IMG/VR virus record: IMGVR_UViG_3300037258_000301
Location: 64,001-128,000 of that record
DNA length: 64,000 nt
Direction: 5' to 3' (one strand)
Origin: a virus
The position numbers and the translations under genes were made by a program. Below, in pieces: positions 1-58,849 of this stretch. The stretch's first letter is position 1; the number at the start of each line of letters is the position of its first letter. Below the pieces are notes generated by a model. The model did no database searches, had not been told where the DNA came from, and was given only the letters and a program-made list of their open reading frames with translations.

Positions 1-459
1 CCCGTCGTGTGGCAAGGCGCGGGTGATGTGAACCGACAGGACGTCCGCCCCATCCCGGATGCCTTCCTGGAGTCGGTGGCGTTCCTACAGGCCGTGGAGA
101 ACGGCATTTTCTCCATCATCGATAGTGAACGCGACCGTACCGCCATTCAGGATGCGCACCGCCGGCAGTTCCAGGCCGCGCAGGAGCGTCAGCAGAGTGC
201 CGGTACCGAATACTTCGACTCCAAGCCGAACGAAGACATCATCGTCACCTCCTGCATCGGGCCGGCCGGCAAGACCGGCAAGCTCTGTGGTGAAACGGTC
301 ACGCTGACCGCCCAGCAGCGCGGCAACACCGTGCCGTTGTGCATCAAGCACAGCTACCTCAAGGTGCAGTTCATCCCGACCGAGACCGGCAAAGTCGTCG
401 ATGGCAAGCCCGAGGTGACGTGGTCGCGGCCCACGCTCGGCCAGCCTCTCGACCACTGA
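1..459 (+). CDS. hypothetical phage protein, probably 5'-truncated by the window edge
   Basis: Frame is open from base 1 (CCC GTC GTG...) to TGA at 459; GC3-rich codons; first gene of a co-directional virion block. Confidence 0.7.
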   Translation, partial: PVVWQGAGDVNRQDVRPIPDAFLESVAFLQAVENGIFSIIDSERDRTAIQDAHRRQFQAAQERQQSAGTEYFDSKPNEDIIVTSCIGPAGKTGKLCGETVTLTAQQRGNTVPLCIKHSYLKVQFIPTETGKVVDGKPEVTWSRPTLGQPLDH

Positions 460-478
460 TCCCTCAGAGAGGCTTGTC

Positions 479-910
479 ATGACCGAGGAGAAGGCTCGCG
501 ACTACCGCAACGCCGTCATCGCGGAGGTAGTGCCGGGAGTTGACCCGGTAGTGCACCAGGCTCACGCTGACTGGATGTCCGGCAACGTCGACACCTCCGA
601 CACGGCCGACCTCATCCAGAATCAGGTCGCGGCCATCTCCCCGGCATTCGCCCTACATCGACGCAACGCCGCTGTCCAGGCCGCCCGCGCACTTGACCCA
701 CATGACCTGGGTGTCTCTCGACGGGCGGTAGTGCTTCCTCACGATCACGAGGAGGCGCAGAAGGTACGTCAGGGCCTCGTCAGGGCGGCCGACTACGCCG
801 TGGATCACCCGATCATCCTGGGCGGTCCTGCCGGCGACAACAGCCTTATGGCCGCCGAGATGGTGCGCCTCACCAAGGATGACGGAGCAGCGCCCGAGGA
901 GGCTCGATGA
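479..910 (+). CDS. hypothetical protein (virion module)
   Basis: 143-aa ORF, GAGG upstream, ATGA overlap with the next gene. Confidence 0.75.
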   Translation: MTEEKARDYRNAVIAEVVPGVDPVVHQAHADWMSGNVDTSDTADLIQNQVAAISPAFALHRRNAAVQAARALDPHDLGVSRRAVVLPHDHEEAQKVRQGLVRAADYAVDHPIILGGPAGDNSLMAAEMVRLTKDDGAAPEEAR

Positions 911-1569
911 CGGCCAGCAAGACCCCGAATCTGGGGTTGATGAACCCGGTGGGATCCGATGACTTCGAGGTCGATGACTTCTCCACCACGTTCGGGATCA
1001 TCGACCAGAACCCCGGCAGTCTCACCGTCGCGAACCAGGCATCACGTCCACTGGGGTGGGGGTCGGCTCAGAACGGGCGTCACGTGTGGCAGGCCGACCA
1101 GAACATCGAGTGGGTGTGGTATCAGCCGAATCCCTCCATCGGAGGCGTCTGGCAGCGTACGTTCCCCAAGGGGTGGCTCGGCGGCGTGAGTGGTGGCAAC
1201 GCCTCAACCGGCAGCAACGCGTTGGGGCAAGGACCCGTCGTGCTCTCTCTGACCGTGCTGGTGCCGGGTGGACGTCCCATCTTGCTCATGCATGGTCACG
1301 GCGACGTCAACAACGACACCACGGGCACCACGGCCCTGTCGGTGTGGCAGAACGGTAGCCTGATTCGCTTCGACTACTCCATGGGTCGCCATGCGTCCTC
1401 CCCGCAGACGAACTCGGTCTATGGCATGTCGTACTTTCTGCTCAATCCGGCACCCACCACCCAGCAGTCGGTGAACTACCAACTTCAGCTCAACACGTGG
1501 ATCAACCTCCCATCCAATGCGGGCATCTCCTCTGTCGAGGCTGCCACGATGGACATTTTCGAGATGTGA
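907..1569 (+). CDS. putative virion fibre/decoration protein
   Basis: N-terminal TPNLGLMNP...F..ID segment resembles phage fibre anchors; beta-rich C-terminus; coupled to neighbours. Confidence 0.55.
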   Translation: MTASKTPNLGLMNPVGSDDFEVDDFSTTFGIIDQNPGSLTVANQASRPLGWGSAQNGRHVWQADQNIEWVWYQPNPSIGGVWQRTFPKGWLGGVSGGNASTGSNALGQGPVVLSLTVLVPGGRPILLMHGHGDVNNDTTGTTALSVWQNGSLIRFDYSMGRHASSPQTNSVYGMSYFLLNPAPTTQQSVNYQLQLNTWINLPSNAGISSVEAATMDIFEM

Positions 1570-1570
1570 C

Positions 1571-2464
1571 ATGACCACTCCGCTGATCGCCAATATCAAC
1601 GATCCCCAATACATCAACCAGTCGGCAACTGACGTATTGGCATTGCAGATCATTATTGGTGGAGTACCAGCCGATCCGGATGAGCAAGCCGTCAATGTCA
1701 CCATGACCAATCAGTCCACCAGTGCGGTGATCTTCTCTCGGGCGGCTGATCGGGTGGCCAATCAGACCGGCGAATACAACCTGACACTGTTGGTGTCCGA
1801 CACGGCCATCGTGGGCAACTACACCGTGCAGTGGGCGTATTCGATCAATGGCAGCGCGGTCACCTACGACACCTATATCACCGTCGGGCCCTACTCGCCG
1901 ACCTACGCGTCACTGGTGCCGGCGATGCGCGCCATCGTCGAGCAGGTCTGGATGCGCTTCGCCGATGAGTTCGACTCTCCGGCCGGCGGCCCGAACCTTC
2001 AGACCTACTACCAGTCCCGGTTCAACCGAGGCCGGATCGCCGAGCTACTCAAGATCGCTTGTGGGCGGTTGAATACCCAGTCCCAGCCTTACATGACCTA
2101 CACCATCGACGGACAGCAGGGAGCGAGCTTCCCGGTGGCCCAATGGGGTCCCCTGTTGGAGCAAGCCTGCTACGTCGAGACGATCAAGCATCTGCGTCGG
2201 TCCTACCTGGAGCAGCCCGACTTCCAGGGTGGTGGCATCACCCGCGTCGACCGACAGTCCTACTTCGATCGCTGGGGTGAGGTGCTCAAGGAAGAGCAGC
2301 AGAGCCTCAAGGACCAACTCGACGTGTTCAAAATTGCTCAGATGCGCCTCGGGCAACCCCGAGTCCTAGTAGCAGGCGGAGTTTTCGGCAGATATTCTCC
2401 GACCAGGTACAGTGCCGGCATGGCCGCAGCTCGGGGATACTTTCTCTGGTCTGCCGGGTACTAA
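1571..2464 (+). CDS. putative head-to-tail adaptor/neck protein with N-terminal Ig-like region
   Basis: ATG at 1571 directly after the upstream stop; beta-rich N-terminus, helical C-terminus; lies upstream of the tail genes. Function inferred from synteny. Confidence 0.5.
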   Translation: MTTPLIANINDPQYINQSATDVLALQIIIGGVPADPDEQAVNVTMTNQSTSAVIFSRAADRVANQTGEYNLTLLVSDTAIVGNYTVQWAYSINGSAVTYDTYITVGPYSPTYASLVPAMRAIVEQVWMRFADEFDSPAGGPNLQTYYQSRFNRGRIAELLKIACGRLNTQSQPYMTYTIDGQQGASFPVAQWGPLLEQACYVETIKHLRRSYLEQPDFQGGGITRVDRQSYFDRWGEVLKEEQQSLKDQLDVFKIAQMRLGQPRVLVAGGVFGRYSPTRYSAGMAAARGYFLWSAGY

Positions 2465-2466
2465 AA

Positions 2467-2485
2467 GTCCTATTTGTTATAGGAC
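2467..2485. terminator. hairpin between convergent genes
   Basis: GTCCTAT-TTGTT-ATAGGAC, perfect 7-bp stem where the + strand adaptor gene meets the - strand HNH gene. Confidence 0.4.
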
Positions 2486-3241
2486 CCAACCCCAGGTTAT
2501 TCTCGCTACTACCTTGCGCACCACTTCACGTTTGAGCCCGAGAGAATCGGCTAATCTCTGCTGACTGATGGTCTCCTCGGCATATCGTCGGCGGATGAGA
2601 CGTACCAGATCTTCATTGATCACTGCGTTGTAGTGATCAATACCTCGGGGCGCTCGTTGTCGCTTCTTGAATACCATATCGTCTGAATTGTCCTGATGTG
2701 TGCCCTTGAACCAGTGTGTCGGATTTTGACACGGTGGGTTGTCGCAGGTATGACAGACGATCTCTCCGGCGACTAGCTGATCATCTGGATTGGCAAAATC
2801 CCAGCCGAAGCGATGAGCGCGAGCAGTGACGGTCTTCTCGTCCTCCCGCCAAGACATAAGACCGTAACCGTCCCTGTCCCGAGATTGCTCTTGCCAAGGC
2901 CAGCAGTCATCGGGTCCGAGTACGGTGAACTTGGATCGGTAGAGGTCTGCCGGAGTGCGATCGAGATTGCGGCTCACCAAGACCCAGTGGTCCATGTTCT
3001 GACACGCCTTGAAGCCGCAGGTGTTGGAGAGCTTGTACCCCTCGGGAATGAAGTCGTGAGTCAATTCCCACCCGAATCGATGGGCACCCGTATCGATGTG
3101 TCGTTCACCTACGGTGTAGGTGAACTTGGCATTGCCGTACTTATCGACCTTCGCACTCCACCCGATACACCCCCGACTGCCGTCTGGTCCGAACACGAGC
3201 TTGGCAACGTAGCGCTGCTCAGAAGTCAGTGACGTAGACAT
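2477..3241 (-). CDS. HNH homing endonuclease, two tandem HNH modules plus C-terminal HTH
   Basis: CWPW..GYG..AHRFGW..VCHTCDNPPCQNPTH..N motif; degenerate first copy (AHRFGW..NTCGFKACQNMDH); SQQRLADSLGLKREVV HTH; TAAAGT -10 box 7 nt before ATG suggests a leaderless mRNA. Confidence 0.9.
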   Translation of the reverse strand: MSTSLTSEQRYVAKLVFGPDGSRGCIGWSAKVDKYGNAKFTYTVGERHIDTGAHRFGWELTHDFIPEGYKLSNTCGFKACQNMDHWVLVSRNLDRTPADLYRSKFTVLGPDDCWPWQEQSRDRDGYGLMSWREDEKTVTARAHRFGWDFANPDDQLVAGEIVCHTCDNPPCQNPTHWFKGTHQDNSDDMVFKKRQRAPRGIDHYNAVINEDLVRLIRRRYAEETISQQRLADSLGLKREVVRKVVARITWGWVL

Positions 3242-3280
3242 GGGCCGTACTTTACCGCGTGCCGAACTTACCGCCCGCTA

Positions 3281-3892
3281 CTAGCTCTCCAGCACATGGA
3301 AGTAGTCGACCTGCACCTGGGCTGAGCCGCTGACCGGACCTTTCGAATTGATCTGGAACGTCGGGTGCATGGGTCCCGACGGGATGTGGTCGGTGTAGGT
3401 GTGCCACGCGATGCCATCCACCGACAAGATGATGGACTTTGCGCTCCAGACCACCCGGTAGGCGTGCCACGCGGTCATGTCCAGCACGCGCTCACCGGCA
3501 TAGTCGGAGGTGTTCACTCCATTCACCGCGTAGTGGTTCCAGGACTGGTAGGACTTCCGGGTGGGGTCGTAGCACTCGACGTAGTCAATCTCACCAGCCA
3601 CCGGCCAGGACGAGTTCAGTTCGGGCCAGAAGAGTAGGACGGGTGCCAGGTTCGCATCCAGAGACGCGGGAAACCGAGCCCGAGTCTCGAACACCCCGTA
3701 GATGAACTGAGTCTTGCCGGCCACTCCGGCGACTCCCGTGGGACTCGCGTTCAGGTTGAGACAGCCGTTCCCCACCACCACCTGGTCGGTAACCCAGTCT
3801 TCTCCCGAGCCGACCCCGTTGTAGGTCCCCCACAGGTTTGTGTCGAGTTCGGCGCCGAGGAAGTCGTCACTTCCGGTGAGCATGGTGGTCAT
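3281..3892 (-). CDS. glycoside hydrolase family 16 (beta-glucanase-like), 203 aa
   Basis: WPVAGEIDYVE matches the GH16 ExDxxE catalytic motif; also DDF..LD..W, YGVFETRARF, WHAYRVVW, VDYFHV; ATG at 3892 with GGAG upstream. Confidence 0.88.
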   Translation of the reverse strand: MTTMLTGSDDFLGAELDTNLWGTYNGVGSGEDWVTDQVVVGNGCLNLNASPTGVAGVAGKTQFIYGVFETRARFPASLDANLAPVLLFWPELNSSWPVAGEIDYVECYDPTRKSYQSWNHYAVNGVNTSDYAGERVLDMTAWHAYRVVWSAKSIILSVDGIAWHTYTDHIPSGPMHPTFQINSKGPVSGSAQVQVDYFHVLES

Positions 3893-3908
3893 CGCGTCAT
3901 CTCCAGGA

Positions 3909-6900
3909 TCAGTGCCACGCCCCGATGTAGGGCATGGAATAGCTTCCGGTCTGCACCAGAGTCGGTACGGTGCCGGGAAGTGCCGTGAGGGCTGACCCGC
4001 TGCTGTTGGTGAACAAGCGTCCGGTAGGACTCGTGGCGGAGGCGTTGGAGCCGAACTTTTGACCACCAACCAGTGTCAGAGTTCCGCCTCCACCGATGGT
4101 GGTCAGGAAGCAAAGGTAGACGAGCCTGCCCACATTTTGCGCGGCGATGGTGGAGGTGAGGCTGACCTTCAGGATCTCCGAGGTTTGACTAGCCGGTAGC
4201 GAGGCAGAGAAGTCTGCCGTCTGACCCAGCAGATTGCCGGTGGCCACGTCATAGATCCCCAAGAACGTCGTGGTGATGGCCGCGCCTGAGCTGACCGCGT
4301 TTACCTCGATATCCATCGCGCTGATCGAGGTATAGGCCGCGATGTGGGCCAAACAGAAGTACGGGCGGCCGGTGGTGATGCCTGGAACCCCCGGGGCGCT
4401 CATCGGATCCATCGTCGCGGCCACGGCATTGATGGCTTGAGCCGCGAGTTGATCCAGGTAGGTCGGCGCTCCGTAGTTCAGCGACGCGTAGGCGGTGGCA
4501 CCATCGCCTACCTTCAACTGGTGCGTGTCGGTCTCGTAGCCGACTTCGCCAAGTCCGAGGGTGGGGTTGTTGGTCAGCCAGTTCGCAACCGTATCGCCCG
4601 GCAGACTGACCGAGCTACGGGGGCCCACGCTGCGTGATGCTGGTGCGTAGCCGACATTGTTGTCGAGGTAGCACGATGTCAGGGTGCCCAGTTGATTGAC
4701 GGCTCCCGTCAGGTTTCCTCGGAAGTCGTTGTTCGCGATGTGCGCGGTGGTGAGGGTGACTCCGCTGGCAACGTAGAGGCCGTATGCCTGCTTCTGGGTG
4801 CCACCGTCATCCCAGGCGCGACAGTCGGCGATTTGCAGGCCGGTGACGGAGGCGTTGAACATGATGCCGTACTTCGAAGTGCTGCTGGTCTGTCCGTTGG
4901 CGTTGAACTTGCAGTTACTGATCTTGATGTCGTTGGATACCTGCTGCACTTCGAGACCGGCCGCGTTGTTGGAGTACGCCTCGCATCCCAGATAGGTCAT
5001 GCCCGAGACGGGGTGTGAAGCCACCGAGTTGATATTGAAGCCCAGCGATGAGTTGCCGTATGCCTTACAGCCGCTGTAGGTGTGGTTGCCGGCCCCCGCC
5101 ACGCTTGTGGAGTTGGATGCGCTCGGCTGATAGCTGAACCCGTAGCGAGAGTTGCTGATGGCCTCACAGCCCACGTAGAGATCATTGCCACCGGGCTGTG
5201 CCGTCGCCCCGATGGTGCCATTGTCGATGGAGAATCCGTCGCTGTTGTTGGCGTAGGCGATACAGCCGGTCCATACCGCGCCGTTGCCCCCGGCGTCTCC
5301 GTAGCCATGGTTGAAGTTTGCCGTCGAGTAGCAGTTGGTGATGCGCATTCCGTAGGAGGTGGTACCGGTTTGAGATTCCATCATGATGCCGTAGCGGCCA
5401 TTGCCGCTGGCGACGCAATCGGAGACGACCCAGTCTTCGACGGCGTGTTGGCCGACCCCGATACCGATGCCATTGCTGCCTGCCCCCGAGCCACCACCCT
5501 GATTGGTGCGACCGTTGCCGATCGCCCGGCAATTGTGAATCGTGGTGCCGTTGGTCAGGAAGTCGGTGCCGATCCCGGTGGCGATACAGTTTTGAACGAT
5601 CAGATCGTCCAGGGTCATGTGGCTGGTGTACTGGATGAAAATTCCCTTGATCGAAACGCTGTAGGCGCCGGCCTGGCGGGCTCCGTCGATGGTCAGATGT
5701 GCCATGGTGAAGTTGGTCAATGGGTTGCCCGAGGTGGCCTGCAACAGGACTGCTGCCGTCGTTCCGAACGGCCATAGGGTGGTAGTGCCGATCCCGGCGC
5801 CGACCAACGAGACGTTGTTCGCCGGAGTGATCGTCGCGCCAAGCACGTAGCCGCCTGGCGGGAAGTACACCGTGGCCCCGGTGGTGCTTGCGGCCGTGAT
5901 GGCGGCGTTGATGGCGACGGTATCTGAGGTGCCGAACGCATATGTCGCACCCGAAACCGTCGTGCTCGCGTTGGCGTTCAAGGTCACCTGGGTGCCGGAC
6001 TGCACCGACAGGATCGTGGTGGAGAAGTCGATGCCGGCCGCTCCCGCACCCACCACCGTGATGTACTGCCCGACGGATCCCGCGCTGAACGCGCCATGGG
6101 TGGTGTCGGTGAAGATCGCCGTGCCGGTGGTGATCGCACCGGTTGTGCTGGTGGCGTAGTTGGCCAGCGCGCCGTAGTCCTTGACGTTGAGGACCAGCGA
6201 CCCCTTGGCGACACCGCCGAGATTGGTCAACGTGGTCGAGGTGCTCGCCACATCCGAGAGGTTGCTGGCTTTGGCCAGGGCAAGACCTTCAGCCGTCTGG
6301 GCCCGAGACTTTTCGACAGAGACGGCGTTGTCGGCGTAAGCCGTGGTCGCGATGTCCGTGTTGCTCGTGAGGGCAGTTTTGGTAGGGGCGGTGGGAGTGC
6401 CCGTCAGGGCAGCGCTGGCCAGTGGTGCGAGGAGCGCCTCAGCCGTTTCTGCCCGAGTCGTCTCAACCGCGACGGCCGTAGCCACGAAAGCATCCGTGGC
6501 GATCTTGGTGGAGGAGTCTCCCGTCGTCTGGGTGGGGGCCGTAGGGTTCCCGGTCAGGGCCGGGCTGGCCAAGGGAGCCTTGAGAGCCTCTGCGGCCTGC
6601 GCCCGGGCCGTTTCCGTCGATACCGCAGCATCCGCGTAAGCCGTGGTGGCCACCTGGGTGGTGTTGGTCAACGCGCCAGCCGTGGGGGCCAGCGGAGTGC
6701 CAGTGAGAGTGGGGGACGCTAGGGGAGCCAGCAGGGCCTCTGCCGTCTCTGCTCGCGAGATTTCGGCACTCAGCGTGGCAGAGGCAGCCTTGGTGGCCTC
6801 GACCCCCTCAGCACGAGTCGTTTCGGCACTTACCGCGTTGTCGGTGTAGGCGGTCGTGGCAATCGTCGTCGAGTTGCTGAGCGCACTCTGGGTAGGAGCG

Positions 6901-7505
6901 GTCGGGACGCCCGTCAACGAGGGACTGACCAGTCCGGCCTTGGCTGCCAGATCAGCGACAAGGCTGGCAATGTCTTCCTCGGTCAGAGTGACGGCACCAG
7001 TTCGGCCAGCGACCGAGGTGACAGGGCTGCCATCAGAGGTGAGGTCTTCGCCCGCCGGCCAACCGTCGAGGCTGTATGGGCCGTAGAAGACAAGGCTGGT
7101 CGTATCGATGTAGATGGACCCCAGCGGTATCGCGGTGCCGTCAGGGAGCGTGTCAGGGCCACCATCACCCGTCAGGATCGTGGGGAGCAACTTGACCTGC
7201 TCGCTGAACAGGGCATTCATGGGAGAGGTAGCGCCCGAGACACCCGCTACCCGTGCCCAGACCTGAGCGACGTTGCCGACCGGCCCGTAGAACTCCGGCA
7301 AGATCCCGCCGGTGTCAGTCTGGAGGGTGGAACCTGGAAGCGGATTGCCGTAAGGATCAACGATGTCGGCCAGTGTGGTGGCTGCCTGGTCGACGTAGAT
7401 CACGACCTGGGTCACGGGAGGTGTCAGGACCGGCATGTAAGCGCCCTGATAGATGATGAAGGATGTGCGATCTGATGGGAAGAGCAGGCGGTTCGTGGTC
7501 GACAA
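3909..7505 (-). CDS. tailspike / tail fibre with right-handed beta-helix (pectate-lyase-like depolymerase)
   Basis: TTG at 7505 follows AGGAG; fibre repeats; LNVKDYGA..DTVAINAAI..VYFPPGGY beta-helix cap; many N/G/C-rich PbH1-type repeats. Confidence 0.85.
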   Translation of the reverse strand: MSTTNRLLFPSDRTSFIIYQGAYMPVLTPPVTQVVIYVDQAATTLADIVDPYGNPLPGSTLQTDTGGILPEFYGPVGNVAQVWARVAGVSGATSPMNALFSEQVKLLPTILTGDGGPDTLPDGTAIPLGSIYIDTTSLVFYGPYSLDGWPAGEDLTSDGSPVTSVAGRTGAVTLTEEDIASLVADLAAKAGLVSPSLTGVPTAPTQSALSNSTTIATTAYTDNAVSAETTRAEGVEATKAASATLSAEISRAETAEALLAPLASPTLTGTPLAPTAGALTNTTQVATTAYADAAVSTETARAQAAEALKAPLASPALTGNPTAPTQTTGDSSTKIATDAFVATAVAVETTRAETAEALLAPLASAALTGTPTAPTKTALTSNTDIATTAYADNAVSVEKSRAQTAEGLALAKASNLSDVASTSTTLTNLGGVAKGSLVLNVKDYGALANYATSTTGAITTGTAIFTDTTHGAFSAGSVGQYITVVGAGAAGIDFSTTILSVQSGTQVTLNANASTTVSGATYAFGTSDTVAINAAITAASTTGATVYFPPGGYVLGATITPANNVSLVGAGIGTTTLWPFGTTAAVLLQATSGNPLTNFTMAHLTIDGARQAGAYSVSIKGIFIQYTSHMTLDDLIVQNCIATGIGTDFLTNGTTIHNCRAIGNGRTNQGGGSGAGSNGIGIGVGQHAVEDWVVSDCVASGNGRYGIMMESQTGTTSYGMRITNCYSTANFNHGYGDAGGNGAVWTGCIAYANNSDGFSIDNGTIGATAQPGGNDLYVGCEAISNSRYGFSYQPSASNSTSVAGAGNHTYSGCKAYGNSSLGFNINSVASHPVSGMTYLGCEAYSNNAAGLEVQQVSNDIKISNCKFNANGQTSSTSKYGIMFNASVTGLQIADCRAWDDGGTQKQAYGLYVASGVTLTTAHIANNDFRGNLTGAVNQLGTLTSCYLDNNVGYAPASRSVGPRSSVSLPGDTVANWLTNNPTLGLGEVGYETDTHQLKVGDGATAYASLNYGAPTYLDQLAAQAINAVAATMDPMSAPGVPGITTGRPYFCLAHIAAYTSISAMDIEVNAVSSGAAITTTFLGIYDVATGNLLGQTADFSASLPASQTSEILKVSLTSTIAAQNVGRLVYLCFLTTIGGGGTLTLVGGQKFGSNASATSPTGRLFTNSSGSALTALPGTVPTLVQTGSYSMPYIGAWH
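6285..6935 (-). repeat. about four ~50-aa stalk repeats in the tailspike
   Basis: Unit LASPxLTGxPxAPT...TxIATTAYxDxAVSxExxRAxxAE occurs 4 times; boundaries approximate. Confidence 0.8.
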
Positions 7506-7544
7506 CGTAATCTCCTGTCTCAACCGGTAGGTGAGTCCTGCCGT

Positions 7545-7573
7545 TTACTGCCGCGCTGAGATGCCCCCTACAG
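7545..7573 (-). promoter_or_regulatory. CTGT-N21-GTAA candidate late promoter for the tailspike cassette
   Basis: Minus strand reads CTGT AGGGGGCATCTCAGCGCGGCA GTAA, 40 nt upstream of the tailspike start; same architecture at 10319, 21199 and 40534. Confidence 0.6.
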
Positions 7574-7588
7574 CTCTACGGAGATGAC

Positions 7589-7861
7589 ATGACCCAGGCG
7601 ACGCACACCGCCAATGGACAGATCCAGATCGGTGCGCAGTACATGATTGACGCGCTCCGAGGAGAGGTCGGCTCTCTGCGAGAGCAATCCCTTCAGCTTC
7701 AGGCGATGTACTTGCAACTTCAGACCGAGGCCCAGCAGGAGATCTCGTCTCTTCGTGCGCAGGTGCAGAAGTACCAGGACGCGGAGGCGACCTCGACACC
7801 AGAGAGTCTCCCGGCCGAAGAGAACGAAGTAACCGACGCCCCCGTTAGTCCCGCACCGTAG
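7589..7861 (+). CDS. small coiled-coil protein
   Basis: GGAG RBS, Q/E/L heptads. Confidence 0.7.
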   Translation: MTQATHTANGQIQIGAQYMIDALRGEVGSLREQSLQLQAMYLQLQTEAQQEISSLRAQVQKYQDAEATSTPESLPAEENEVTDAPVSPAP

Positions 7862-7879
7862 TAGTGGGGAGAGTAGCCA

Positions 7880-8101
7880 ATGTCATTGCCAGTCGTAGGA
7901 ACCGCAGTCAACTATTATTGGAAGAGTGGACAGGCGTCAACACCTGCACTTGTTCACAACGTCGACGACATCAATGGCGTCATCATGGTCACTTACATTT
8001 CACCGGCCGTGTACTCTCCGAACTTTCCGGGTGCCCCCATCTTCACGAGTCCCTGGTCTTCGCAAGGAACGGGTGTGGGCCAATGGGAACCAATGTCGTG
8101 A
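7880..8101 (+). CDS. hypothetical protein, 73 aa
   Basis: GGAGAG RBS before ATG; fills the gap between neighbours. Confidence 0.65.
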   Translation: MSLPVVGTAVNYYWKSGQASTPALVHNVDDINGVIMVTYISPAVYSPNFPGAPIFTSPWSSQGTGVGQWEPMS

Positions 8102-8118
8102 GTGGGTGATCGGTCGTC

Positions 8119-8931
8119 ATGCCCTTTGTCATTCCCAATCCCAATCCCGAATCGGCTCCCACGCCCAATCAGCCGTTCTACATCAGGCAGACCCAAAATT
8201 GGGCGATTGAGCAAGAGCGCCAAAGGCATGATGAGGCAATTTATTGGGTAGGCGAGTATGCCTTCATCGCGTTGATGTGGCATACCGTCGACTTTGAATT
8301 GGGACTCGTCGGTCGGTGCTACACCTGCTTCAATACCGGCGATACCATCCAGGATCGGGTCACCGCTGTCTACAAGCAGCCAACGAAGTTCTTGTGTCCG
8401 GACTGCTACGGCACCACCTACGAGGGTGGTTACCGAGCGTTGCTCGTGCGTCCCTTCATCTTCGTTGACGCCGACGAGTCGGAGAGGCAGGACCGACGAG
8501 GGTCCGTGCACCCGATGTCGCTGACTGCCGAATCCACCTGGGATTTCCGTAGCTATGAGGGCGACTATCTCTTCCGACGAGACGGGTCGCGTTACCGAGT
8601 GACGATGCAGCCATCGCGCACCATGTTGCGTACCGGCTTCGCACATCCTTCTCAGCAGGCGACGACGTTGGGATATGGCCGGATGACCATCGGATACGAA
8701 GAGGTTGACACGGTCGCCTACACCATCGCGCCCAACGGTGTCGCCGTCTCGAACATCCTCAACGTCAGTAGCCCCGAACAGCCCGCTGACTTCTCCTCGG
8801 TCGAGGTCATCAACGGACCGCTCATCACCGGCGACGGCATCTACAGCACTACCCCGAGCGGGGGTACCAACCCCGGTGATGGCACCTCTCCTGGCACGGT
8901 CACCATGACCGGTAGCGGATGGGGTGATTGA
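8119..8931 (+). CDS. putative head-closure/neck protein with two CxxC motifs
   Basis: RCYTC and CPDCYGTTYEGGY motifs; lies before the tail completion and sheath genes. Confidence 0.6.
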   Translation: MPFVIPNPNPESAPTPNQPFYIRQTQNWAIEQERQRHDEAIYWVGEYAFIALMWHTVDFELGLVGRCYTCFNTGDTIQDRVTAVYKQPTKFLCPDCYGTTYEGGYRALLVRPFIFVDADESERQDRRGSVHPMSLTAESTWDFRSYEGDYLFRRDGSRYRVTMQPSRTMLRTGFAHPSQQATTLGYGRMTIGYEEVDTVAYTIAPNGVAVSNILNVSSPEQPADFSSVEVINGPLITGDGIYSTTPSGGTNPGDGTSPGTVTMTGSGWGD

Positions 8932-9649
8932 GCTGCCCGACCTGATCGCGCCCCAACTCCAGTACGGATCCGGCACACCGGACCGCATGGTGATGTTCGC
9001 TGACGTATCCGAGCAGGATGCGCACTACCTGGCAATCGACGCCACCGAGCATGCCCGGCTGACCATACCGCGCGTCAGTGGTGCAACGGCCCGCCGACTT
9101 CAACCGATCTGGGCTCGGGGGTACTTCGGGATCTACTTCCCCGACCCGCAGACATGGTTCATGGAACACGGAACCAACCCTCGCACCATGCGATCGCTGG
9201 CTGGCAAGGTCATCCCGATGTGGGTGTCCGACCAGGATGGCTCAATTCGCGCGAAGAGCCCCAAAGCCGAGACGCGACGTACCGAGGATGGCCGCTTGCA
9301 GGTGCTCATCTTCCGGCGTGCCGCACGCATCGGGCAACGCAAGACCGTCCGACGTCCTAACCGCTTCACTGGCGCCATGGAGACCGTATCGGTGCCTGCC
9401 AGTTATCCCGGCGCTCCCGGTCGCATCAGTCGTCGTGTTCCGGCCGGCATAGGCCCTTCTGGGGGTCAGATCGCGGCCGGCAACGTCGGTGTTCGGTGGC
9501 GTCACCCTGGCCTGCGGGCCATGCAGTTCCTCAACGGGGCGCTGGCCTCCACCGCGTTCAGCGCGAGCCTGTTCATCGGTGAGGTGTATGCCACCGACGG
9601 TGCCAGTCTGGAAACGCTGGTCGAGCAGCAACAGCGAAGGGAGGGGTGA
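8924..9649 (+). CDS. basic virion morphogenesis (tail completion-like) protein
   Basis: Arg-rich; W(F)MEHGT and WRHPGL motifs like neck/tail-completion proteins; overlaps the upstream stop. Confidence 0.5.
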   Translation: MIELPDLIAPQLQYGSGTPDRMVMFADVSEQDAHYLAIDATEHARLTIPRVSGATARRLQPIWARGYFGIYFPDPQTWFMEHGTNPRTMRSLAGKVIPMWVSDQDGSIRAKSPKAETRRTEDGRLQVLIFRRAARIGQRKTVRRPNRFTGAMETVSVPASYPGAPGRISRRVPAGIGPSGGQIAAGNVGVRWRHPGLRAMQFLNGALASTAFSASLFIGEVYATDGASLETLVEQQQRREG

Positions 9650-9652
9650 TTC

Positions 9653-10312
9653 TTGTACCTGACCTATCTCAAAGCTGCCGTGGTGGAAGCACTGAGTGCC
9701 ACCTTCACGAGCACCTACCCCAATCCTGACTTCCGTACGGTTTACGCATCCATCGAGTATCCGGCGGACAAGGCCAACTATCCCGGCATTTGGGTCCAAT
9801 ACGAGGATGGCGCCGAACTGTCGGTCGCCGGTATTGGACATATTGAAAGCACCATCGTTCCCGCATCCAGTGGGACGTCCGCCCAATACGAACAATGGAC
9901 TCGTTGGCACTTCTTCGGCACGGTCACATTGACCGTTGTCGCCTTGTCTTCACTGGAGCGTGATCGACTTTACGACGAAGTGGTGCGTACTTTCGCTTTC
10001 GCCAAGCAGAACCGTGAACTGTCACCGTTCCGAACGAAGATCGAAAAGAACGACTTCGTTGCGATGAACGCAAATTTCGACAACTTGCGACCGTTCGGAG
10101 ACAACGCGGGACCTGGGACGCCCTGGAGCACCGACGAGATCCTCTACGAGAAGTCGATCTCCTTCAACCTGCAAGGCGAATTCACTGGCGACGTCAGCGC
10201 GATCGAGTACGTCGAACTGAGCAAGGTCGAGGTCCAGGACTACATCGCAGGCGCCCCCTACCCGACCTGGCCGGATCAGTCTGGGGGCTTCGACCCCACC
10301 CAGTGGCACTGA
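9653..10312 (+). CDS. putative tail terminator
   Basis: TTG after GGAGG; 219 aa; immediately before the sheath gene (synteny). Confidence 0.5.
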   Translation: MYLTYLKAAVVEALSATFTSTYPNPDFRTVYASIEYPADKANYPGIWVQYEDGAELSVAGIGHIESTIVPASSGTSAQYEQWTRWHFFGTVTLTVVALSSLERDRLYDEVVRTFAFAKQNRELSPFRTKIEKNDFVAMNANFDNLRPFGDNAGPGTPWSTDEILYEKSISFNLQGEFTGDVSAIEYVELSKVEVQDYIAGAPYPTWPDQSGGFDPTQWH

Positions 10313-10318
10313 GGGGCG

Positions 10319-10348
10319 CTGTCCGCGCCCGAGCATCGACGGGGGTAA
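10319..10348 (+). promoter_or_regulatory. CTGT-N22-GTAA candidate late promoter for the sheath operon
   Basis: Intergenic CTGT at 10319 and GTAA at 10345, before the GGAGGAG RBS of the sheath gene. Confidence 0.55.
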
Positions 10349-10379
10349 TTCGTGAGTCGATCCGGGTGGAGGAGTAGCG

Positions 10380-11900
10380 ATGACGGGACCTTTCGGGCAG
10401 TATCTGCCGCCGGGTGTCTACGTAGACGCCGGGCCCAACCCGACCGTCGCGCCAGTGGGTGTCAATCCGACCATCGTGTGCCTGATCGGCAACGGCGTCG
10501 GCTATCACACGTTCAGCGAGAGTGACTCGTTCGCCTCGTCAACCTCCGTCACCTTGCAGCAGACCGGCGTCGATCCGACCTCCGTCGTGGTCACCGGCTT
10601 CGTCGCGGATCCGAACGCCAGTGGGAACTCGATCTCGACAACCTTCGTGCAAGGCGCGAGTGGCACGAACGTGGGCGACTACTACGTCACCATCACGACG
10701 CCGCCCTCCGGTGGACCGCAGAACACCATCGCCGCCGTGGTCAAGACCTCCGGATCCGCGATCAGTTCGACCTACCCACAGGTCACGATCAACTACCACT
10801 ACACCGATGCCACGTACTACCAGCTCAACGCCTTCACCGACTTCACCACCTTCCAGGACGTCTACGGGCCGGCACTCGATCCGGCCACGGGAGCCGTTTC
10901 CTCCCCGTTGTCACTGGCCGCGCAGTACGCGATCCAAAACGGCACCAACAAGCTCTATGCCCTGGCCTTGTCGGGGACCGGTTCCGTCCAGCAGCAGTTC
11001 GCCGCCGCGTACGCCACTCTCTCGGGCCTGAACACTGACGCCAACATCGTGGTGCCGCTCTGGAAAGATGTCACTGATCCGGGGCAGTTGGCTGGCATGA
11101 TGGCCACTCTCAACGCGGCACTGACCGCTGATGCGAACGATGGTGTGCTGCGGGTGGGCATCATCGGCCTGAGCAAGAACTACAGCCAGGCCACCTCCGT
11201 CACTCAGGCGCTCGCCACGACGATCGCGTCAGAACGCATCGTGTTGGCGTGGCCCAATCAGCTTGCCCTCTACAACGGCGTCACCAACTCCACGGTCACG
11301 ATCGGCGGCTACTACCTGGCCGCTGCCTATGGTGGACTGCTCTGTGCCCAGGCCCCCAACATGCCGTTGACCAAGAAGCAGCCCCTGGGCTTTGCCGGTC
11401 TGCCGGCTACGGTCGCCATCGCCATGACCACCACGGTCAAAAACGCGCTGTCCTCCTCGGGCATCTCCGTCACCGAGCCCGCTCGTACCGGTGGGCTGAG
11501 CGTTCGACAGGGGTTGACCACCAACTATGCCGGTGGCCAACTCACCCGAGAGATTTCGCTGGTGCGTCAGGCTGACGCGCTCTACGACCTGGTGCAGACC
11601 ACCCTCGACGCGGCGCAGCTCATCGGTCAGCCGATTACCTCGACCACGGCTCTGTCGGTCAAGGCGATCGTCACCAATGCTCTGGAGACGGCTGTCGCCG
11701 GCAACCTGATCATCGGCTATACCGGGCTCGCGGTCCGCGAACAGGCACCTCCCAACGGCGACCCGACGGTGATCGAAGTCCAGTTCGCGTGGCAGCCCAC
11801 CTATCCGCTGAACTATGTCTTGGTCAACTTCACGGTCGACACCACCACCGGCGTGACCACGGTGAACGCGGCCAACATCACCGGCACGACGAGTGCCTGA
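10380..11900 (+). CDS. tail sheath protein
   Basis: N-terminal YLPPGVYV; C-terminal VRQGLTT..REISLVRQAD..IEVQFAWQPTYPLNYV sheath signature; 506 aa. Confidence 0.92.
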   Translation: MTGPFGQYLPPGVYVDAGPNPTVAPVGVNPTIVCLIGNGVGYHTFSESDSFASSTSVTLQQTGVDPTSVVVTGFVADPNASGNSISTTFVQGASGTNVGDYYVTITTPPSGGPQNTIAAVVKTSGSAISSTYPQVTINYHYTDATYYQLNAFTDFTTFQDVYGPALDPATGAVSSPLSLAAQYAIQNGTNKLYALALSGTGSVQQQFAAAYATLSGLNTDANIVVPLWKDVTDPGQLAGMMATLNAALTADANDGVLRVGIIGLSKNYSQATSVTQALATTIASERIVLAWPNQLALYNGVTNSTVTIGGYYLAAAYGGLLCAQAPNMPLTKKQPLGFAGLPATVAIAMTTTVKNALSSSGISVTEPARTGGLSVRQGLTTNYAGGQLTREISLVRQADALYDLVQTTLDAAQLIGQPITSTTALSVKAIVTNALETAVAGNLIIGYTGLAVREQAPPNGDPTVIEVQFAWQPTYPLNYVLVNFTVDTTTGVTTVNAANITGTTSA

Positions 11901-11943
11901 TGACAGTCACCGCCGAATCCGGACATAAGGAGCAATGAGGTAG

Positions 11944-12432
11944 ATGCCCGATACCCAAGTACGCGTGGTCGGCTCCGGGTTCTCTTCCTTCAGTTATCAG
12001 GGGCAACCCATCGCATTTTTGGAAGGTGTCGACGACTCAGGACAGCGCGCGTTCTCCGACGCGGGCCAGGGCTACCAGTTCATCCACCCGCTCGGTCAGC
12101 GCCATCCCGTCGAGATTGCGACCTCGCGTGTGCTCGCCGGAGGCACGCTGAACCTGACCATTCGCGAGTTGTGGTCGGGCTGGGTCTGGGAGCAGCTTCA
12201 GGGCTTGGCCGGTACCAACAACATCGTGGACGTGTTCGATGTACTGGCGGCAAGCCCGGCCTACGTGACTTGCCAGACGGTGATCCAGCCTCCAGGCAAT
12301 GCAGCCCCCAGGGGTAAGAACTACATGAATTGCACCATTGTGGACATCTCTGACAACGACACCATCACCGTCGGGGCACTGGCCGTGACAAAAGGGATAG
12401 TTGTCGCATATACACACTCAACGGCACTTTGA
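11944..12432 (+). CDS. tail tube protein
   Basis: 162 aa, beta-rich, directly after the sheath gene. Confidence 0.8.
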   Translation: MPDTQVRVVGSGFSSFSYQGQPIAFLEGVDDSGQRAFSDAGQGYQFIHPLGQRHPVEIATSRVLAGGTLNLTIRELWSGWVWEQLQGLAGTNNIVDVFDVLAASPAYVTCQTVIQPPGNAAPRGKNYMNCTIVDISDNDTITVGALAVTKGIVVAYTHSTAL

Positions 12433-57849: not shown

Positions 57850-58544
57850 GGACGCTGCCTGTGAGAAGAACCGCATCTCGTGCTGGCGTGGCGGAATTGA
57901 GAAGCCTCTTCCGTCATCTTGAAGAGTTGCGGTCGCTCTATGAGGCCAAAGGTACTGACGAGATCATCACTCCAGATGGAAATCATTGGTCTCTCTGGGA
58001 TCTCGAATACCTTTATCGGGAATCGCAGAAGCTGGATAATCTCACTCTTCGCCAATCTCAAGCCATTCAACTGTGCTTAGTCGACGGTCTGTCCGAACGA
58101 GAAGCATCTCATGTCATCGGTACTCGTCCGACCAATCCCGTAGCGATCTATGCAAACCAGGGCTTGGCTCGACTGTTGGAGTTGATCGACAATGGTCGTC
58201 TTGCTCGTTTCCGCCCGCTGCCCAATGAAGATGAGTTGCTCCGTCAGCGTCGTCAGGTCACTTTGGAGCGTCTAGCTGGCCAGATCAAGTCCAGCGTCAC
58301 CATCGAGACGAACGGCTGTTGGATCTACCCACTCTTTCATCCCCGGATCAATCCGGTTATTGCATTGCGTGCATCTCACTCTCCGAATGGTGTCGTTTAC
58401 GTTCATCCTCTCTGGGTCATGTATGAGGCCCTCGTCGCCCCGGTTCCTATTGGGCAGCGAGTTACCCATCATGACCTTTTTCAGTTCTACTATCGAGGCT
58501 GTGCCAATCCGGAGCACGCCATTCTTGTTGAGGAGTCGCAATGA
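57813..58544 (+). CDS. sigma-70 region-4-like HTH protein fused to a degenerate HNH-like domain (start uncertain: 57813, 57825, 57861 or 57888)
   Basis: LTLRQSQAIQLCLVDGLSEREASHVIG; ETNGCWIY..VMYEALVAPVP..VTH..CANPEH. Confidence 0.65.
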   Translation: MGSEVSSWCAHDGTLPVRRTASRAGVAELRSLFRHLEELRSLYEAKGTDEIITPDGNHWSLWDLEYLYRESQKLDNLTLRQSQAIQLCLVDGLSEREASHVIGTRPTNPVAIYANQGLARLLELIDNGRLARFRPLPNEDELLRQRRQVTLERLAGQIKSSVTIETNGCWIYPLFHPRINPVIALRASHSPNGVVYVHPLWVMYEALVAPVPIGQRVTHHDLFQFYYRGCANPEHAILVEESQ

Positions 58545-58849
58545 GGGTGAGGTATGGAGTTCACGGTCCATTGGAAGAAGCAGCCAACGAATTCATACGT
58601 CAGTCCCTACTCACGGTGAAGAGTCGTGAGGAGAAGTCAGACATCCTCACGCCGTGGAAAGAGCATCATCGTCGATCCGTCGAGGTCTATTCCTCGATGG
58701 GGGTCCCCGACTCGGCTTTCCGGCAAGGCATCTTCAGGCGGGCCCGCAACAGGACCAAAAGCTATCTGAACTCCTGTGATGGAGTCATACAAGGTCGACG
58801 TGGTGAACATGAGGGCTTCGCTGACTTCGCCGCCGACGAGGAGTACTGA
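58541..58849 (+). CDS. hypothetical protein
   Basis: GAGGAG RBS; coupled to both neighbours. Confidence 0.7.
   Translation: MRVRYGVHGPLEEAANEFIRQSLLTVKSREEKSDILTPWKEHHRRSVEVYSSMGVPDSAFRQGIFRRARNRTKSYLNSCDGVIQGRRGEHEGFADFAADEEY

Follow-up and report, generated by a model that had tools for sequence, protein, structure and literature searches.

A 64,000-nt stretch of viral DNA (bases 64,001-128,000 of the 151,624-bp record IMGVR_UViG_3300037258_000301, which is rated complete; hereafter the window, with negative window coordinates denoting the same record upstream of the window start) contains three minus-strand open reading frames (ORFs), encoding an HNH endonuclease, a GH16 enzyme and a spike, set between plus-strand genes. 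The reading that we favour, and hold to be probable, is that these genes occupy a variable slot which in this phage holds an inverted spike-GH16 operon together with a separate, selfish HNH gene. It builds on the anatomy of the locus, the family matches, the variability of the slot, the contrast in orientation and the position bias of an upstream motif, all observed directly, and from these we infer the promoter and terminator functions, enzyme activity and substrate, attachment to the virion and the target of the endonuclease. The sequence-only reading of this DNA had described three minus-strand genes interrupting a plus-strand virion module, and this is borne out by the ORF listing and by the GC content at the third codon position (GC3), which backs the coding status of the three ORFs; a crude GC3-based gene call places the rest of the structural region, from about -24.7 kb to +33.5 kb in window coordinates, on the plus strand. 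The features of the region are as follows.

1571..2464, plus strand: adaptor-like gene, the left flank, 297 aa
2468..2486, minus strand: hairpin with a 7-bp stem and a 5-nt loop, overlapping the HNH stop codon
2477..3241, minus strand: HNH gene, 254 aa, PHROG HNH families
3281..3892, minus strand: GH16 gene, 203 aa, PF00722
3909..7505, minus strand: spike gene, 1198 aa, PF12708, PF13229 and PF18454
7506..7588, no strand: divergent intergenic region of 83 bp, from the spike start to the next plus-strand gene
7545..7573, minus strand: promoter-like element CTGT-N21-GTAA, 39 nt before the spike start
7589..7861, plus strand: small gene, 90 aa, GC3 0.72
7880..8101, plus strand: doubtful small ORF, 73 aa, GC3 0.59
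8119..8931, plus strand: conserved virion-module gene, the right flank, 270 aa, phrog_2806

The genome was assembled from the metagenome of a single sample, and the inversion could in principle be an assembly artefact. This is scarcely credible, however, as a second assembly (from one run, probably of the source sample) crosses both junctions in one Logan contig of 14,708 nt that covers positions 1400-8700 with zero differences and zero joints, and both junctions have sensible gene ends together with the promoter-like element and the hairpin. No alternative orientation, alternative joint or HNH-free form was present in the assembly of this one run; contigs hide rare variants, and the lack of alternative forms therefore says little.

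The stretch enclosed by the adaptor-like gene and its conserved neighbour was compared in 28 related viral loci found via an alignment of the tube protein (tube identity 60-87%). According to tblastn with the window proteins, the relatives keep the gene order adaptor, slot, next gene, two more genes, sheath and tube. Both flanks can be seen in 16 of the 28 loci, and in these the slot ranges from 285 to 5685 bp, compared to 5654 bp here. The large slot ORFs of the relatives are on the plus strand and their cargo differs from locus to locus, comprising Gp80 fibre, tail-collar, CBM_4_9, ConA-like lectin and GDSL esterase, and further pectate-lyase beta-helix, DMFA2_C, glycosyltransferase domains or no known family. 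The earlier proposal of a swappable host-range slot thus withstood the comparison across these 16 relatives, whose cargo is unrelated, and the interval is supported as the putative swappable slot of this phage group for host-surface genes, which would be the place where these large, uncultured actinophages from soil keep their host-recognition genes. Rhodococcus phage E3 is without a slot, its adaptor and next-gene homologues abutting, and Gordonia phage Pupper has one extra gene at the same junction. In Pupper (L003, genes 109 and 114) this extra slot gene is annotated 'ParB C-terminal domain' and an 'endonuclease' gene is found directly after the sheath gene; the two insertion points are those used in the uncultured relatives.

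Downstream of the slot are the sheath (phrog_2839, E 1e-65) and tube genes. The adaptor-like protein matches 223 phage records, all at <60% identity, from phages of Mycobacterium (209), Gordonia (9), Rhodococcus (4) and Mycolicibacterium (1), with gp107 of Rhodococcus phage E3, a 'structural protein', as the closest cultured match (34% identity). The sheath and tube genes and the relatives of the adaptor therefore identify a large contractile-tailed actinophage, and a megablast search of window positions 1-12000 against 50,697 phage records gave no match. The host is probably an actinomycete; the hints are that Mycobacterium, Gordonia and Rhodococcus are the hosts of the cultured relatives and that one spike homologue is attributed by its source to a Pseudonocardiaceae bacterium.

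The spike scores above the Pfam cut-offs for PF12708 (44.2 vs 27 bits), PF13229 (39.4 vs 25.9 bits) and also PF18454, and matches PHROG tail-fibre families down to E 9e-30. Its start codon is a TTG at 7505, situated behind AGGAG, and homology to the relatives sets in at residue 3-6. The protein consists of an N-terminal anchor (residues ~1-100), fibre repeats (~160-440), a pectate-lyase-like beta-helix (~445-960), an Mtd_N-like motif (~970-1004) and a C-terminal domain (~1005-1198). Among 31 spike homologues, obtained from 7997 scored candidates, the beta-helix is common and both ends differ, and an alignment of 21 homologues likewise revealed a conserved beta-helix with variable ends. The body of the spike is predicted to be a beta-helix glycan depolymerase and looks intact. 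Tailspike depolymerases with PF12708/PF13229 have the same arrangement of N-terminal anchor, fibre region and right-handed beta-helix, with ends swapped between homologues; unlike them, the spike here is paired with a separate GH16 gene and is encoded in the neck module instead of among the baseplate genes. Five loci sharing the beta-helix were retrieved in a viral scan with the spike alignment; two of them (L064 and L067) have the C-terminal domain as well, and no neck genes, GH16 or HNH were found near the beta-helix in these five.

Two adjacent stretches in the phage's own genome (130,891-131,798, plus strand) are 36-41% identical to the C-terminal ~200 residues of the spike (E 6e-24 and 2e-9), and the C-terminal domain thus also exists outside the spike in the same genome. 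A search for a template repeat of the diversity-generating retroelement type with the last 692 nt of the spike gene, in which reverse transcriptase was not included, gave no such repeat; the only other match in the genome is of 54 nt at 78%. The Mtd Pfam match of the spike is to the Mtd N-terminal domain only.

The first ~100 residues of the spike align with slot genes of the relatives, with R6, P10, D12, R13, the run P70-E71-F72 and others invariant. A scan with an alignment of this domain revealed 11 anchor genes on nine contigs (three of them new), and in all nine contigs the anchor genes follow the adaptor in plus orientation, the first one starting <=35 nt from the adaptor match in six cases. 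The domain is 29-42% identical to the copies in the relatives, the adaptor 43-56% identical to its homologues, and a language-model look-up of the N-domain gave weak leads to 'head-binding domain' clusters (score 0.85). We regard these residues as the putative virion-anchor domain of this lineage itself. Since the anchor gene of the relatives is on the plus strand, its orientation here points to an inversion of the resident module, or a replacement of it by an inverted copy. The best explanation, and in our view a likely one, is that the spike-GH16 arrangement was not imported from an alien element. Two relatives have two anchor-domain genes per slot (L156:8001-8249 and 10862-11152; L157:4770-5060 and 8001-8300) and may carry two different appendages each.

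A fibre gene opposite in orientation to that of all relatives, together with an imperfect 24-nt inverted repeat (3741-3764 and 7515-7538), would also suit a programmed invertible host-range switch caught in one orientation. Mu G and P1 C are invertible host-range segments of this kind, and the inverted fibre gene resembles them, but invertase, bracketing repeats and an alternative fibre end are all lacking here. In the 151.6-kb genome there was no match to the resolvase/invertase (PF00239) or tyrosine-recombinase (PF00589) families, the controls being positive; no repeat pair is present at 2465 and 7588, the best pairs (70-83%) lying elsewhere and at chance level by estimate; and the other strand holds no alternative fibre end. 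The assembly of the one run likewise gave no alternative joint, though contigs hide rare forms. A switch is thus very improbable, and the inverted resident module is the reading followed below.

A further-reaching idea takes as its starting point that the fibre or spike genes are located directly behind a gp13-like adaptor that bears an extra Ig-like domain. The slot would then encode neck-attached enzymatic appendages ('collar spikes') of a contractile-tailed phage, with the conserved ~100-aa N-terminal domain docking at the neck, but we consider this doubtful. The pre-neck appendages of phi29, formed by the enzymatic beta-helix gp12, and the fibritin whiskers of T4 have their genes next to those of the neck and are fixed to the neck or collar; compared with these, neck attachment here is only guessed from gene position. 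If true, actinophages would carry exchangeable depolymerase collar spikes (a beta-helix with a GH16 partner) far from the baseplate, gripping or clearing the outer glycan layer of the host before the tail engages.

The GH16 protein reaches 40.9 bits with PF00722 (cut-off 22, E 1.9e-10). Its start was corrected from a longer ORF and is located 17 nt past the spike stop codon, behind GGAG, giving a minimal protein of 203 aa without signal peptide, anchor domain or carbohydrate-binding module. GH16 enzymes have the catalytic motif E-x-D-x(x)-E, which here reads E101-I-D103-Y-V-E106, and E101, D103 and E106 are invariant in eight sequences. Seven homologues were found at 52-80% identity, all with a precomputed PF00722, and in a near-length search of 5.8 billion sequences the clade consists of eight proteins and is phage-borne. 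A profile of the homologues matches solved GH16 structures (6t2s, 6t2n, 6t2o and the laminarinases 6jh5 and 4crq) with a best E of 7.7e-12, and a search of 185,579 species genomes gave cellular relatives of at most 39% identity. The protein is like other GH16 hydrolases in passing the Pfam cut-off and in its ExDxxE-type motif, and unlike them in forming a minimal 203-aa, phage-borne clade. We predict it to be a catalytically intact small glycanase. The claim that spike and GH16 are two glycan-degrading enzymes accordingly stands as a prediction, in that both look intact by sequence.

No match to GH16 was found in 37 related loci, nor in the whole records of five near relatives (two of them complete), where a positive control on the phage's own genome worked. 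A viral scan with GH16 alone returned the window's own record only, and a metagenome scan with the GH16 alignment gave seven distant loci (25-32% identity), in which no window protein matches. When the homologues of GH16 and of the spike, each coming from single contigs, were compared, three contig sizes appeared in both sets: 108,787 nt (P0004 and P0014), 150,796 nt (P0006 and P0022) and 12,663 nt (P0007 and P0015). As these sizes are common to both homologues in three other metagenomic contigs, spike and GH16 probably travel together, and the two enzymes would probably attack the same host envelope glycan. The recurring pair of beta-helix and GH16 is a possible tool against actinomycete envelope glycans; a limited literature search gave no report of such a phage pair, and absence is not claimed.

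Alternatively, GH16 could be a soluble lysis or release enzyme that cuts wall or matrix glycan at burst and merely shares an operon with the spike. This would agree with its 203 aa without anchor domain or signal peptide, with the signal-peptide-like N-terminus of the homologue P0008, as in a secreted cellular enzyme, and with the fact that the spike homologues sharing contigs with GH16 have only the beta-helix in common, no docking domain being conserved. GH16 nevertheless recurs with spike homologues on the three other contigs, the slot cargo of the relatives consists of fibre and surface-enzyme genes, and no recognisable lysis gene adjoins GH16 in the stretch examined. We see a role in lysis as possible, if on the unlikely side, and favour the partnership of GH16 with the spike.

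The CTGT-N21-GTAA element at one end of the three genes and the hairpin at the other, as given in the sequence-only reading, were found at 7545-7573 and 2468-2486. Exact copies of the element number three in the window, where 0.59 would be expected (a count of three was reached in 2 of 100 shuffles), and four in the whole genome. With a spacer of N20-22 there are seven genome matches, five of which end 15-60 nt upstream of a co-oriented start, a position that 2.5% of strand positions qualify for, and this result (5/7) is the first among 144 within-half letter permutations, whose mean is 0.24. The genes behind the element are those at -6627 (prohead-protease region), the spike, 10380 (sheath, N22), 21250 and 40591. 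The suggested wiring of the genes into the late programme is therefore upheld in so far as the element recurs before virion genes including the sheath, while late timing is presumed. In the relatives a cognate motif, CTGTCC-N~19-GAAGxGGTGA, was identified with a regular expression, giving 26 plus vs 4 minus matches in L029-L056. It is present in 14 of the 28 sheath upstream regions, ~60-110 nt before the sheath homologues, and just before slot fibre genes in L032, L033, L037 and L056; L032:3922, L033:1578, L037:2708 and L045:5130 are among its positions outside the sheath upstream regions, and the window phage uses a GTAA variant. This distribution fits a candidate promoter of the phage group, and would provide a gene-upstream signal for the virion genes of these actinophages.

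Neither strand of the divergent region 7506..7588 folded into a significant structure (z -1.4 and -1.0). The hairpin at 2468-2486, GTCCTAT-TTGTT-ATAGGAC, folds as minus-strand RNA with -17.3 kcal/mol (z -2.6, 1 of 200 shuffles as good) and has UUUU on its 3' side, and as plus-strand RNA it has a z of -1.9 and no U-tract. It looks like a candidate terminator of the cassette. The operon would probably be transcribed from 7545-7573, a copy of the motif that this phage has upstream of its genes, with transcription probably ending at the hairpin and U-tract at 2468-2486.

The HNH protein matches PHROG HNH families with E 2e-30 to 1e-18, and its Pfam matches are below the cut-offs (HNH_3 18.8 vs 24.8; zf-His_Me_endon 20.6 vs 27). 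It consists of two HNH_3-like repeats, at ~aa 6-86 (degenerate) and ~aa 96-190 (intact), which are 32% identical (E 6e-11), followed by a C-terminal region matched by helix-turn-helix families of some homologues. In 16 full-length homologues H164, C166, D167, C171, N173, H176 and N185 of the second repeat are invariant, and in the first repeat N73 takes the place of the catalytic H164 across the 16 aligned homologues. The description 'double HNH' is thus correct as to the two repeats, but only the second one keeps its catalytic histidine. The gene has a GC3 of 0.63, compared to 0.72-0.84 in its neighbours, and lies in a region where GC is 0.54-0.55 (2251-3000); no Shine-Dalgarno sequence was seen before its ATG, and it is situated 12 nt from the adaptor stop codon.

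A paralogue of HNH is found in the phage's own genome at 58,048-58,617 (about -5950 to -5380 in window coordinates, with -5817..-5455 within), on the minus strand. It encodes 189 aa (L071:1366-1935; phrog_1872, E 3e-25) inside an open plus-strand frame of ~1083 aa, whose N-terminus matches the head maturation protease and whose later part matches phrog_3842, and it seems to be inserted between two parts of a capsid-assembly gene. Further homologues, 30-34% identical, separate sheath and tube, in minus orientation, in seven of the 28 relatives (L030, L035, L036, L041, L050, L053 and L055), at a point where the window has a 43-nt gap (11901-11943) and no HNH. At the adaptor junction HNH is absent in all related loci. 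None of the best 120 of 149 HNH homologues is found on contigs of 108,787, 150,796 or 12,663 nt, the sizes shared by GH16 and spike homologues.

The foreign composition, the homologues at other sites and the missing linkage form the pattern of an independent selfish gene. HNH is best explained, with good though not full confidence, as a free-standing tandem-HNH homing-endonuclease-like gene that constitutes an independent selfish insertion, a bystander and not a carrier. It would probably target the conserved end of the adaptor gene, or the junction, in endonuclease-free relatives. These same findings speak against the claim that the cassette is spread by HNH. The locus illustrates that a host-range module is not necessarily moved by the endonuclease gene next to it, and composition and the sites of homologues tell the two cases apart.

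In the opposite view the three genes (HNH, GH16 and spike) move as one cassette; the endonuclease would cut cassette-free alleles, and repair would copy the whole host-range module. All three are indeed on one strand, between one promoter-like element and one hairpin, and HNH marks the very edge of the slot, the stop codon of the conserved adaptor being 12 nt away. T4-type free-standing endonucleases are reported in PMC2993671 to transfer flanking DNA by intronless homing and co-conversion, and co-transfer of slot DNA by HNH is for that reason conceivable. The composition of HNH is however unlike that of its two neighbours, its family members occur at other sites, also antisense to late genes, none of the best 120 of the 149 homologues matches the contig sizes of the GH16 and spike homologues, and copying 4.3 kb needs homology on the far side, where the relatives are only 36-58% identical in protein. 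A single cassette is therefore improbable, and HNH is treated below as the independent insertion. Endonuclease-driven fibre transfer in actinophages was not found reported in a limited literature search, and absence is not claimed.

The 39-nt spacer before HNH (3242-3280, minus strand) contains GTAA twice and a one-mismatch element ATGT-N22-GTAA, which could be a weak promoter of its own or due to chance. A 30-nt imperfect inverted repeat around HNH (2361-2390 and 3260-3289; 77%) was dropped, as ~0.7 such pairs are expected by chance by estimate.

Several points weigh against the reading of an inverted spike-GH16 operon with a separate HNH gene. Minus-strand slot cargo is also found elsewhere: in L038 a gene for a small membrane protein is read from the minus strand (L038:2143-2427), and the same gene is on the plus strand in L032:3589-3864, L037:416-712, L045:5944-6153 and in L056, and a 109-aa minus-strand slot ORF in L052 may also be opposite-strand cargo. 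The linkage check took in the best 120 of the 149 HNH homologues, the other 29 being weaker matches, and the co-occurrence of spike and GH16 was deduced indirectly from equal contig sizes. All relatives with DNA are distant (adaptor <=65% identical), and they therefore offer no endonuclease-free allele of the HNH junction for comparison. No terminator is visible upstream of HNH, which may therefore be co-transcribed with the operon, and in that case it may be 'separate' in evolution and not in expression. In the genome no sigma-70 region 2 that might read the motif was found, one sub-threshold sigma region-4-like match being located at window 58032-58133, and a consensus terminator scan did not list the hairpin at 2468-2486. 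The roles of promoter and terminator are predicted from position and sequence.

The small membrane-protein gene shifts about within and beside the slot, and L038 represents a second strand reversal at the locus. Other minus-strand slot ORFs, in L035/L036 (204 aa) and L054 (330 aa), were rejected as antisense shadows, since plus-strand ORFs there have the higher GC3 and they have no Pfam match.

Among known systems the T4-related phages have hypervariable tail-fibre segments and unevenly distributed homing-endonuclease genes, according to the review PMC2993671, where intronless homing by SegF and SegG is also cited. The present phage is like them in that a mosaic fibre segment interrupts an otherwise conserved order of virion genes and free-standing endonuclease genes come and go, and unlike them in being an uncultured high-GC actinophage with the slot between neck-module genes and the spike gene inverted; the closest phages in culture, at <36% identity, are Rhodococcus phage E3, Gordonia phage Pupper and Mycobacterium myophages. 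Its endonuclease shares with free-standing HNH and Seg/Mob endonucleases an intergenic location beside a conserved gene, foreign composition, sporadic occurrence, membership of the HNH (His-Me finger) type and weak translation signals, but differs by its tandem form, with a His-less first HNH_3-like repeat conserved in 16/16 full-length homologues. Every component belongs to a known kind, and the locus is an ordinary, if tidy, case of known phage mosaicism.

Between the spike and the right flank, the 90-aa gene (7589..7861) has a coding-like composition, only weak family matches and no tblastn match (E<=0.01) in any related locus fetched, and is slot cargo. The 73-aa ORF (7880..8101) is located in a lower-GC stretch, gave no family match and no match in related loci, and may be non-coding slot filler.

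The left-flank protein matches phrog_2791 (E 7e-50) and consists, in a model with a predicted local distance difference test (pLDDT) value of 74.9, of an Ig-like domain at the N-terminus, a helical domain and, at the C-terminus, a disordered tail. The helical domain (residues 116-272) aligns to T4 gp13 (9lu4_D) with Z 9.2 and altogether to seven phage neck, tail or connector entries with Z 8.3-9.3 over 109-118 residues, the others being the Pa223 tail, the A4 and P-SCSP1u portal-tail, the KHP30 and SU10 tail and the P1 connector; such values are middling for a helical domain, as Z below ~13 can mean a common helical arrangement. Foldseek on the same model gave Ig-like matches to the N-terminal domain only, and a PDB sequence search with profiles of both flank proteins gave no match. 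The label 'adaptor', originally given to the gene at 1571 from its sequence, thus receives moderate fold support from T4 gp13, and a head-to-tail adaptor is a moderately supported prediction for the left flank.

The right-flank protein matches phrog_2806 with E 1e-14 and is found at 36-58% identity in 25 of the 28 tube-found loci; 'head-closure', the name given to the gene at 8119 in the sequence-only reading, is a putative label. Its model (pLDDT 49) was too poor for a structure search. Four of its cysteines (C67, C70, C93 and C96) do not vary across 10 sequences and may form a putative zinc-binding site. In L048, L051, L054 and L055 the homologue constitutes the C-terminal third of an ORF of 670-715 aa.

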